Positions 17,987 through 19,301 are shown, counted from the stretch's first letter. The stretch is DNA of 64,000 nt from Nannocystales bacterium (GCA_050633305.1 JBOEGF010000047.1:1-64000), one strand, 5' to 3'. The notes: generated by a model not told the origin, from the sequence alone. Translations and numbers: made by a program.

Positions 17987-18454
17987 CTAGCCGGAGAGAA
18001 TCCGCTCCGCGTCCACCGCCCATTCCGGCGAACCGATGGTGAGGACGACTGCCGTCTTCGTCGTCACGGACAACGACGAATGTGGCAACGAAACGTTCTG
18101 GAACAACCACACCGTATCGACCAAAGACTCCGAATGATGGTCGGTCGTCATCACGGTCGCATCCTCGGACAGACCCAACTCGTCCCTCAACGCCACAATC
18201 ACCTCATCCGCAATGTCGTGCATGCGCGTGCACCCCGGGCCCCAAAACATCAGGTAGGACGCCCCCTGAAGCAGCAACGTGGTGAGCACGCGGTCGGCTT
18301 CTGCAACGTCCGTATCGCTGGAGTCCCACAAGACCAGGCATGCAAAGTGCTTCGAAACCGACAGCCCCTCACCGGGCACCTCCGCTGTGCACGAGACCGA
18401 CAGAGAATGCACCGCCCGGTCCAGCGAACCGCAGCCTAGGACCTTCATCGCCAT
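17987..18454 (-). CDS. Conserved hypothetical protein directly downstream of the tRNA modules
   Basis: LLLQGASYLMFWGPGCTRMHDIADE...VMTTDHHSESLVD, coding-like. Confidence 0.7.
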   Translation of the reverse strand: MAMKVLGCGSLDRAVHSLSVSCTAEVPGEGLSVSKHFACLVLWDSSDTDVAEADRVLTTLLLQGASYLMFWGPGCTRMHDIADEVIVALRDELGLSEDATVMTTDHHSESLVDTVWLFQNVSLPHSSLSVTTKTAVVLTIGSPEWAVDAERILSG

Positions 18455-18509
18455 CACAGAAGGGTACGCCGTTCCGCCAGGTTCCGAACACGCTTCTGCG
18501 CCCTGTCGA

Positions 18510-18585
18510 TGCGGGGAGCGGGGGTCGAACCCGCAAAATCTCCCGGCACTCAACCGGGCGGCTTTACCAACTTGCCCATCCCCGC
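18510..18585 (-). tRNA. Atypical tRNA-Leu(GAG), short variable arm, no CCA
   Basis: GCGGGGA/TCCCCGC acceptor + A73; D-arm GGC-AAGTTGGTAAA-GCC; AC stem CCCGG/CCGGG with loop TTGAGTG; 7-nt V region AGATTTT; T-arm GCGGG-TTCGACC-CCCGC. Confidence 0.85.
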
Positions 18586-18590
18586 GTGGA

Positions 18591-18666
18591 TGCGGAGAGC
18601 GGGGATCGAACCCGCAAAATCTCTCGGGTCTGAACCGAGCGGCTTTACCAACTTGCCCACCTCCGC
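18591..18666 (-). tRNA. Atypical tRNA-Leu(CAG), short variable arm, no CCA
   Basis: GCGGAGG/TCTCCGC + A73; same D-arm; AC stem CTCGG/CCGAG with loop TTCAGAC; T-arm GCGGG-TTCGATC-CCCGC. Confidence 0.85.
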
Positions 18667-18757
18667 GCGTGCGCGCGTGTTCGGACTCACCCCATTCGGC
18701 GATCTGGCCATGAGCGGCGAGTCCGTATTCAGTTGTTCGGAGTCCTGGCCGGGAGTC

Positions 18758-18853
18758 CTACGTAGGCGCAAGGCCCCGTCGTGCAACCAGCAGCGTCGCG
18801 CCCGGCAGGAGCCGAGTACGGAGCGGGCAGCAAACTGGGATTTGGGTCGCCAT
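18758..18853 (-). CDS. Putative leader peptide MATQIPVCCPLRTRLLPGATLLVARRGLAPT (31 aa) upstream of tRNA-Leu pair
   Basis: ATG 10 nt after -10 box; Leu codons CTC, CTC-CTG, CTG-CTG, CTT; stop lies inside a long hairpin. Confidence 0.5.
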   Translation of the reverse strand: MATQIPVCCPLRTRLLPGATLLVARRGLAPT

Positions 18854-18862
18854 TGTCCTCAC

Positions 18863-18891
18863 AACATGGTCGCGGCGCGGAAGTCTGTCAA
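18863..18891 (-). promoter_or_regulatory. Sigma70-type promoter of tRNA-Leu module
   Basis: TTGACA (18891-18886), 17-nt spacer, CATGTT (18868-18863). Confidence 0.6.
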
Positions 18892-18956
18892 ACCGAAATC
18901 AGACTCGCGAACTCGAAAGGGGTCCGTGGCCCTCAGGAAACACTGAGCAGAATCAA

Positions 18957-19029
18957 TACGGCGTCCAGGACTCGAACCTGGATCTTGGGTTTCGAACACC
19001 CGTGTCCTATCCGTTTGGACGAACGCCGC
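18957..19029 (-). tRNA. Atypical tRNA-Arg(UCG), no CCA
   Basis: GCGGCGT/ACGCCGT acceptor; D-arm GTCC-AAACGGATA-GGAC with A after GG (Arg identity A20); loop GTTCGAA; T-arm CCAGG-TTCGAGT-CCTGG; one C-A mismatch in AC stem. Confidence 0.8.
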
Positions 19030-19034
19030 AACGA

Positions 19035-19106
19035 TGCGACGTCCAGGATTCGAACCTGGATTTCGAGGTTCGCCCCCTCGTGTCCTGTCCGTTGGACGAA
19101 CGCCGC
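19035..19106 (-). tRNA. Atypical tRNA-Arg(GCG), G32/G33, no CCA
   Basis: GCGGCGT/ACGTCGC acceptor; GTCC/GGAC D-stem; AC stem CGAGG/CCTCG with loop GGGCGAA; T-arm CCAGG-TTCGAAT-CCTGG. Confidence 0.8.
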
Positions 19107-19145
19107 AATGGTTCGACGAGTTCGGTTGTGTCCCCACGTTCGTCG

Positions 19146-19292
19146 CTACGCCAGGTCGCCGTCGGGCCGGACGGACAGCGTGGGCGTTGGACGCAAGCCA
19201 CTGGCGACAGACGAACAACACATCCCCTCGAGCGCGTACCCCATGGAGGGCTCGCTGCTCGCCAAGGCGACGTCGTTGTTCGATGCGGTCAC
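19146..19292 (-). CDS. Putative leader ORF (48 aa) upstream of tRNA-Arg pair
   Basis: GTG 10 nt after -10 box (same spacing as Leu module); TAG inside 3' arm of hairpin; only two Arg codons. Confidence 0.3.
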   Translation of the reverse strand: MTASNNDVALASSEPSMGYALEGMCCSSVASGLRPTPTLSVRPDGDLA

Positions 19293-19301
19293 AGTACGAG
19301 G

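Follow-up and report, generated by a model that had tools for sequence, protein, structure and literature searches.

Accessory short-armed leucine tRNA genes in an Arg-Arg-Leu-Leu cassette of a Nannocystales bacterium

Leucine tRNAs are described as long-armed everywhere except in animal mitochondria in the review by Giege and Eriani, which lists A73, A15-U48, G18G19, and A20a as the leucine identity elements of Escherichia coli and states that the variable arm is not needed (Giege and Eriani, 2023; PMC9976931). A short-armed (type I) tRNA-Leu(CAA) is nevertheless found beside four type II tRNA-Leu in Streptomyces coelicolor, where a single LeuRS charges both types (Fan et al., 2019; PMC6614811). 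According to the same report, the type I molecule is a working and apparently essential tRNA, its charging needs the leucine-specific domain of the enzyme together with two residues at the C-terminal end of that domain, the 5-nt length of its variable loop matters, and E. coli LeuRS does not charge it; almost all bacterial tRNA-Leu were considered type II and the short form rare (PMC6614811). Further, a tRNA-Leu(TAG) whose variable loop is short was reported from tRNA gene clusters of the Mycobacterium mucogenicum clade (Behra et al., 2019; PMC6582537), and long tRNA arrays were described as horizontally spread, with the Anabaena array being induced by translational stress and aiding survival (Santamaria-Gomez et al., 2021; PMC8421152). 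A preliminary description of the locus studied here had taken a long arm as the background for bacterial tRNA-Leu, a statement that has to make room for these documented short-armed forms (PMC6614811; PMC6582537). A literature search, with supplements that may hold tRNA tables outside its scope, did not find short-armed tRNA-Leu or tRNA arrays in myxobacteria.

The window analyzed here is a stretch of 64,000 nucleotides from a Nannocystales bacterium (GCA_050633305.1 JBOEGF010000047.1:1-64000), in which ARAGORN identified four tRNA genes, all on the minus strand and within about 600 bp. The features of the locus are as follows.

18509..19295, minus strand: whole cassette in the order leader, Arg, Arg, leader, Leu, Leu (from contig comparison).
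19146..19244, minus strand: ORF of 32 amino acids upstream of the Arg pair, overlapping a block conserved with the leader of genome G014.
19033..19107, minus strand: tRNA-Arg(GCG), G34 isoacceptor, with G33 in this copy (ARAGORN; Rfam 49.5 bits).
18956..19030, minus strand: tRNA-Arg(UCG), accessory copy with an atypical body (ARAGORN; Rfam 53.5 bits).
18758..18853, minus strand: ORF of 31 amino acids, candidate leader between the Arg and Leu pairs.
18591..18666, minus strand: tRNA-Leu(CAG), type I, 76 nt (ARAGORN; Rfam RF00005, 56.4 bits).
18510..18585, minus strand: tRNA-Leu(GAG), type I, 76 nt (ARAGORN; Rfam RF00005, 51.5 bits).
17987-18450, minus strand: DUF7684 protein gene directly downstream, about 60 nt from Leu(GAG) and on the same strand.

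The Leu pair consists of genuine tRNA genes. Both scored above the 29-bit gathering score of RF00005, with E-values of 2.4e-9 for Leu(GAG) and 1.1e-10 for Leu(CAG), and the sequence parse gave each a 7-bp acceptor stem followed by A73, U8, a 3-bp D stem (G10-C25, G11-C24, and C12-G23) with an A13.A22 mismatch, the D loop AGUUGGUAA containing A14, G18G19, and one additional A following position 20, and an anticodon stem and T arm of 5 bp each, with all 20 stem pairs intact. The variable region of both was AGAUUUU, 7 nt without a stem, and neither gene encoded CCA. The anticodon loop of Leu(CAG) was regular (UUCAGAC, with U33 and A37) and that of Leu(GAG) carried an unusual U37 (UUGAGUG). Both genes are thus type I tRNA-Leu, having a Leu anticodon and a variable loop of fewer than 10 nt with no stem, and lack the stem-loop of at least 10 nt that marks the canonical class II form. 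The remaining class II Leu determinants (A73, A14, G18G19, and A20a) were all present and position 15-48 was G15.U48, as against the A15-U48 of the E. coli list. The Leu anticodons, A73, Leu-like D arm, and 7-nt variable region reported in the preliminary description were therefore recovered by ARAGORN, Rfam, and the parse; so were its compensatory stem differences between the two copies, at 28:42 (C-G in one gene and U-A in the other) and 5:68 (G-C versus A-U), while the change at 7:66 was one-sided (A-U versus G.U).

The pair is probably a functional set of accessory type I tRNA-Leu, predicted to be leucine-charged by the single LeuRS of the cell and to serve as spare decoders. The genes would be transcribed, trimmed by RNase P and 3' processing, and completed by CCA addition; recognition by LeuRS would then depend on A73 and the D/T elbow and make no use of the arm, and on the ribosome the CAG tRNA would read CUG and the GAG tRNA CUC/CUU. 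By analogy with the Anabaena tRNA array, this spare supply may be expressed mainly under translation stress. The retention of A73 and a Leu-type D arm in both bodies makes this the better supported interpretation of their likely identity.

The closest comparison inside the genome is with its own class II tRNA-Leu. The assembly (11.0 Mb in 90 contigs, 92% complete) gave 68 ARAGORN calls, from which several of 94-97 nt in repetitive or coding-like sequence and an 80-nt "Asn-AUU" call were set aside as not being regular tRNAs. Five long-armed Leu genes of 82-87 nt (UAA, CAA, CAG, UAG, and AAG) were found in the whole assembly by ARAGORN and no second GAG gene was present in it outside the cassette. 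The window pair resembled these genes in A73, U8-A14, G18G19, the extra base after position 20, the Leu anticodons, and the 3-bp D stem with its 13.22 mismatch, and differed in that 7 unpaired nt replaced a variable stem-loop of 13-16 nt. Position 37 also differed, being A or U in the pair versus G37 in the long-armed Leu(CAG) and Leu(AAG).

A class I body might also be charged by a synthetase other than LeuRS and so place a different amino acid at CUN codons. Bacteria do have natural mistranslating tRNAs, and beyond the class I shape of the pair this idea can draw on a plain alignment to the genome's own tRNAs, in which Leu and Asp were both top-ranked. Non-cognate identity elements were however not found in the two genes: the discriminator is A73, whereas Asp has G73, the D arm is of the Leu type, 3:70 is G-C and not the G3:U70 of Ala, and charging by SerRS is unlikely because the long arm is missing. 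Synthetases except LeuRS, SerRS, and AlaRS read the anticodon (PMC11028032), which is here that of Leu, and no synthetase gene, hence no extra one, occurred among the 46 ORFs scanned around the cassette. Mistranslation by the pair is accordingly regarded as extremely unlikely.

The minimum-energy fold of each Leu tRNA was a rod and not a cloverleaf (z of -2.4 and -2.2), with the AUUUU of the variable region pairing with UAAAG on the 3' side of the D arm in both genes. This rod was not adopted as an alternative structure because other sub-lineages carry different variable regions.

One LeuRS above the NCBIfam cut-off was identified in the 92% complete assembly, such that type I tRNA-Leu coexists with the type II form and a single LeuRS as in S. 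coelicolor. The other matches to the LeuRS model were weak, lay in open frames of 892, 1132, and 695 amino acids, and were assumed to be other class I synthetases. The LeuRS has 899 amino acids and its closest solved relatives are those of Thermus thermophilus (686 bits) and E. coli (644 bits). With the LeuRS of the actinomycete Dactylosporangium roseum, which carries a short Leu(CAA), it had 50% identity, and the two enzymes had in common an insertion of about 45 amino acids and the loss of the ZN1 cysteines. Among four aligned enzymes, the leucine-specific domain was longest in the LeuRS of the window genome, which has WD just before KMSKS versus YG in the actinomycete proxy and hence is without the glycine that precedes KMSKS there. 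As a pointer to the charging of short tRNAs, this comparison of protein sequences is suggestive only.

Leucylation of both types by the one enzyme is predicted from the S. coelicolor precedent, which shares with the present genome the Leu anticodon, the short variable loop, and the long-armed tRNA-Leu and single LeuRS alongside. Actinomycete short Leu genes recovered in the pattern scan described below also had the 3-bp D stem and 13.22 mismatch of the window pair. In S. coelicolor the short tRNA is a housekeeping CAA isoacceptor with a 5-nt loop; the isoacceptors of the window, CAG and GAG, are accessory, have a 7-nt loop, and lie on a transferable cassette in the Myxococcota. Charging has been demonstrated for the Streptomyces molecule and is predicted for the window pair.

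In a separate observation from the Myxococcota, Pyxidicoccus fallax (G089; loci L279 and L281) had two full-length LeuRS genes, one of 839 amino acids with the leucine-specific domain and one of 833 amino acids almost without it. This organism also has a short-armed Leu(CAG) (L078).

The limits of the cassette were set by comparison with public contigs (four runs, of DNA or of unknown kind) over 18300-19300. No RNA run was listed as containing this stretch. Contigs from three other organisms (X2, X3, and X5) fit the window at 90-95% likeness, starting at 18508-18509 at the 3' end of Leu(GAG) and stopping at 19292-19295, with flanks unlike those of the window; the sharp ends of this likeness therefore identify the cassette as a unit of about 785 bp. 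Within the Leu pair, the three organisms differed from the window in three places, namely the spacer, position 38, and position 66. The window has G at position 38 of Leu(GAG) where the contigs of the other organisms have A, and U at position 66 of Leu(CAG) where the related contigs have C, by which G7.U66 becomes G-C, so that the differences between organisms keep the structure. No difference was listed for U37 of Leu(GAG) in X2, X3, or X5, and it is therefore not a lesion private to the window genome.

The adjacent Arg(GCG) gene presented a different case. Position 33 of tRNAs is almost always U, and the tRNA residue encoded at 19074 is G in the window and U in contigs X2 and X3; the Rfam alignment of this gene had low posterior probability in the loop. 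G33 is possibly a lesion private to the window genome, and as such may point to a relaxation of selection on the cassette copy carried here. A regular Arg(UCG) exists elsewhere in the genome (contig C16).

Carried further, these observations would make the cassette a decaying relic that was acquired horizontally and is losing function, with some or all of its four tRNAs unused. Besides the G33 of Arg(GCG), the U37 of Leu(GAG) and its G38 where relatives have A would fit such decay, as would the failure to find the pair in six genomes of the same genus and the lack of a sigma-70-type match in a promoter scan (both given below). It is at odds with the 20 intact stem pairs of both Leu genes, with the changes between organisms that keep or improve pairing, with a U37 that is unchanged in three other organisms and so not private, and with the fully regular anticodon loop of Leu(CAG). 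Decay of the cassette is thus considered unlikely, and functional spare leucine tRNAs remain the preferred interpretation.

The leader regions of the two tRNA pairs were compared with the copy in genome G014, which belongs to another genus. A block is conserved between the Arg leader of the window and the Leu leader of G014 (window 18667-18955 and 19108-19300, minus strand; L002 1380-1500), including a 5-6-bp hairpin of the GCCGUC...GACGGC type followed by UGGCGUAG, and the ORFs of 31-32 amino acids end in or near it. An ORF similar to these, with the conserved end CCUACGUAG, precedes the G014 copy. In the 31-amino-acid ORF, CUN or CGN accounted for 10 of 30 codons, a richness equaled by 4.7% of 107 control ORFs from the window, and Arg or Leu codons were not enriched in the 32-amino-acid ORF (5 of 31). 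A codon-matched leader role for the former before the Leu pair is weakly suggested by this composition. The promoter scan returned no promoter-like site and no sigma-70-type match, and two terminator-like sites were found versus 1.5 expected. TTGACA hexamers also occur upstream of both tRNA pairs and were not counted as evidence.

The neighborhood bears on the second half of the preliminary description, which had offered a tRNA mimic or decoy as the alternative to a functional minimal tRNA-Leu. Such RNAs would take no part in decoding and would instead sequester or draw away a toxin, nuclease, or modification enzyme that acts on tRNA, and the 46 ORFs within about 10 kb on each side include an ADP-ribosylglycohydrolase and a DSP phosphatase domain of the polymorphic-toxin type. 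Anchoring of a toxin on the long variable loop is also known, for MenT3 (PMC11541572). A search of 26 neighboring ORFs with PHROGs and PADLOC, however, gave no phage structural, integrase, or defense-system match, and no protein partner travels with the cassette since the flanks differ between organisms; for the same reason the downstream DUF7684 gene lies outside the conserved unit. The tRNA bodies themselves speak against a decoy, as conservation of the acceptor stem, A73, T loop, and elbow bases follows that of charged tRNAs, 83 of 319 short Leu genes among the matches listed in the wider scan encode CCA, and the Streptomyces member is a working and apparently essential tRNA (PMC6614811). 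A decoy role is consequently judged very unlikely. Of the two options in the preliminary description, the functional tRNA-Leu is the better supported by A73, the D arm, kinship to long-armed Leu genes, the Streptomyces precedent, and the long arms kept by neighboring Ser and Tyr tRNAs in loci with short Leu genes (counts below), and the mimic or decoy gained no positive support.

The distribution of the pair was patchy. With the 166-nt Leu pair as query, BLAST against 40 genomes including the window's own matched tRNA genes in two of the 39 others, both of other genera (G014 with 93% identity and G018 with 82%), and in G018 an Arg(GCG) gene precedes the matched Leu gene. A further genome (G029) gave a partial match of 35 nt without a tRNA, and the 166-nt query matched none of six genomes of the same genus (72-94% complete). 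A covariance model built from four copies and run over 72 family genomes, with ARAGORN applied to 30 loci, recovered short tRNA-Leu genes (74-77 nt) from no fewer than 14 of these genomes, representing seven genus codes. These genes nearly always adjoin Arg tRNAs, with 29 short Leu, 26 Arg, and 2 Pro genes in 14 loci. Arg(GCG) is frequent in the accessory arrays of the family and absent from the housekeeping set of the window genome, and the housekeeping Leu(CAG) of the family is a separate, long-armed gene. The patchy distribution, the sharp ends of the cassette, and the full long-armed Leu set elsewhere in the genome establish the accessory status of the pair, and the cassette has the supernumerary genes and patchy, horizontally spread distribution of an accessory tRNA array.

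In these characters the cassette resembles the array of Anabaena PCC 7120 as described (PMC8421152), which likewise adds supernumerary tRNA genes with atypical bodies to a housekeeping set and has spread horizontally. It differs from the long arrays of that report, which reach 43 genes, in having four genes, two Arg and two Leu, and is thus not a long array. Stress induction was demonstrated for the Anabaena array and is proposed for the cassette by analogy. A short Leu gene in an accessory or phage tRNA cluster next to a long-armed core set is also the situation of the M. mucogenicum-clade clusters, as far as reported (PMC6582537), and of phage arrays; for instance, Cellulophaga phage phi17:2 (NC_021798.1) has an annotated 75-nt tRNA-Leu within a tRNA array that is 78% identical to the window genes. 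The mycobacterial and phage cases differ from the window in hosts and sequence sub-lineages, and the cassette is not flanked by phage or plasmid genes; a plasmid match for the cassette region was not found.

Selection on structure, proposed in the preliminary description from two copies, was upheld by the 29 short copies of the family, which covary far beyond chance. The alignment was fitted to the model, which favors structure somewhat, and an independent parse gave the same figures: 98.9% of cells paired against 73.3% for shuffles, two-sided changes occurred in 17 of 20 pairs, and the covariation score was 0.681 versus 0.199 in shuffles, with none of 500 shuffles as high. Slid controls gave 38-53% pairing.

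Arrays of the sister genus g4 contained accessory Leu tRNAs with the acceptor and D arm of the window type but with a long arm (83-88 nt). An unrooted tree was built from 67 structural columns of 118 tRNAs, comprising 28 short family copies, 21 long accessory genes of g4, 9 housekeeping genes, and 60 drawn at random from 291 other short genes. The window pair grouped with G014 and G018 (support 93-94, from 67 columns and below the starred level), and this group was nested in a set (support 89, also unstarred) whose basal members were the long-armed accessory genes of g4. One short gene of g4 paired with a long gene of the same genus (support 88, unstarred), and the housekeeping CAG and UAG genes stood apart (support 99). 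The mixed placement of long and short genes suggested that the two forms interconvert within one accessory lineage, as read from few columns and an unrooted tree. The closeness of the pair to the long-armed accessory Leu genes of g4 points to descent from tRNA-Leu.

The wider occurrence of short Leu tRNAs was surveyed with a degenerate pattern combining class-I spacing, the T arm, an NAR anticodon, and the 3' half of a Leu-type D arm. It matched at least 120 loci in a bacterial genome collection and at least 120 in viral contigs, and among the matches listed 236 of 242 tRNAs called by ARAGORN were tRNA-Leu of 73-80 nt. Carriers among the matches listed included many Actinomycetota (single genes and arrays), arrays of Planctomycetota and of Nostoc, Verrucomicrobia, and, within the Myxococcota, Pyxidicoccus fallax, Myxococcus sp., Archangium, Vitiosangium, Labilithrix, and one Myxococcaceae genome. 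All loci listed together held 381 Leu genes of at most 81 nt, of which 319 were unique and parsed, 21 were unparsed, and the rest were duplicates. The D-arm part, T arm, and two anticodon bases of these genes are not independent observations because the pattern fixes them, and the discriminator, stems, and variable length are independent of it. Among the 319 genes listed, A73 occurred in 315 and U8 in 318, and the variable region had 5 nt in 259, 6 in 33, 7 in 24, and 4 in 3. Position 37 was A in 239 and G in 77 of the same listed genes, and their anticodons were only CAA, UAA, CAG, GAG, UAG, and AAG, which follows partly from the design of the scan and ARAGORN filter.

SerRS and TyrRS use the variable arm of their tRNAs. 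Among the matches listed, the bystander genes in loci with short Leu genes were long (at least 82 nt) in 33 of 34 cases for Ser and 17 of 20 for Tyr, and in these loci arm loss is confined to Leu. From the same listed matches, the short arm looks like the usual form of tRNA-Leu in phage and accessory tRNA sets. The window pair is therewith an ordinary member of a known, little-discussed family and belongs to an already described kind, not a new kind of molecule, so the novelty implied by the preliminary description falls away in favor of a type I tRNA-Leu that is known and widespread. Annotation and textbook statements are also affected, as the short form was called rare by Fan et al. (2019; PMC6614811), yet it occupies at least 120 loci in each collection.

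Among the short Leu genes listed, U33 was absent in 19 of 319, most of which were GAG isoacceptors. C33 was found in many short Leu(GAG) (loop UCGAGAG), in Myxococcota and Planctomycetota alike, including loci L017, L018, L019, L027 (family f1), L042, L076, L088, and L116 among others.

Several features weigh against the interpretation of the pair as functional, leucine-accepting spare tRNAs. The 7-nt loop is shared with only 24 of the 319 short Leu genes listed, as against the 5-nt length that matters in Streptomyces (PMC6614811), and the enzyme of E. coli fails on the Streptomyces type I tRNA (PMC6614811). The two residues critical in Streptomyces are located immediately before KMSKS, where by proxy an actinomycete LeuRS has YG and the enzyme of the window genome WD. 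In addition, Leu(GAG) carries U37 at a position nearly always occupied by a purine in tRNAs, the adjacent Arg(GCG) carries G33, the minimum-energy folds are rod-like, and plain similarity ties Leu with Asp.

The anticodons of the cassette also differ from those of the housekeeping decoders at position 34. The housekeeping CUN decoder of the family is, unusually, a long-armed Leu(AAG) with A34, located at C76:3-87 in the window genome, and ARAGORN called the AAG anticodon in 11 of 11 loci of relatives from eight genus codes (L283-L294). Bacterial tRNA-Leu(AAG) has been reported for only a few groups, namely Lactobacillales, Mycoplasma, and Prochlorococcus, with no mention of Myxococcota in that source (PMC13249217). 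The regular A34 tRNAs of the window genome are two, Arg-ACG and Leu-AAG, and their exact G34 counterparts, Arg-GCG and Leu-GAG, are found in the cassette and at no other place in the assembly. A34 tRNAs need deamination to inosine. The presence of both counterparts suggests that the cassette might serve the CGN and CUN boxes as a bypass that needs no modification, with the abundant CGN and CUN codons staying readable after a toxin, phage, or stress has put the edited or arm-bearing housekeeping tRNAs out of action. The cassette Leu tRNAs, being without G37 and without the long arm, would suit such a role; arrays of other family genera, however, also carry Arg-ACG, and foreign origin alone may explain G34. 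An inosine-independent bypass is hence quite unlikely. The cassette and the family-wide Leu(AAG) nevertheless offer a testable handle on spare tRNAs versus inosine-dependent decoding in myxobacteria.

Small clusters of atypical tRNAs were identified on other contigs of the genome, namely His-Gln-Pro, Tyr-Ser-Ser-Ser, and Lys-Asn. The 80-nt call set aside above, "tRNA-Asn(AUU)" at C32:152651-152730, has an over-long anticodon loop and an encoded CCA and lies beside regular Glu and Lys tRNAs.
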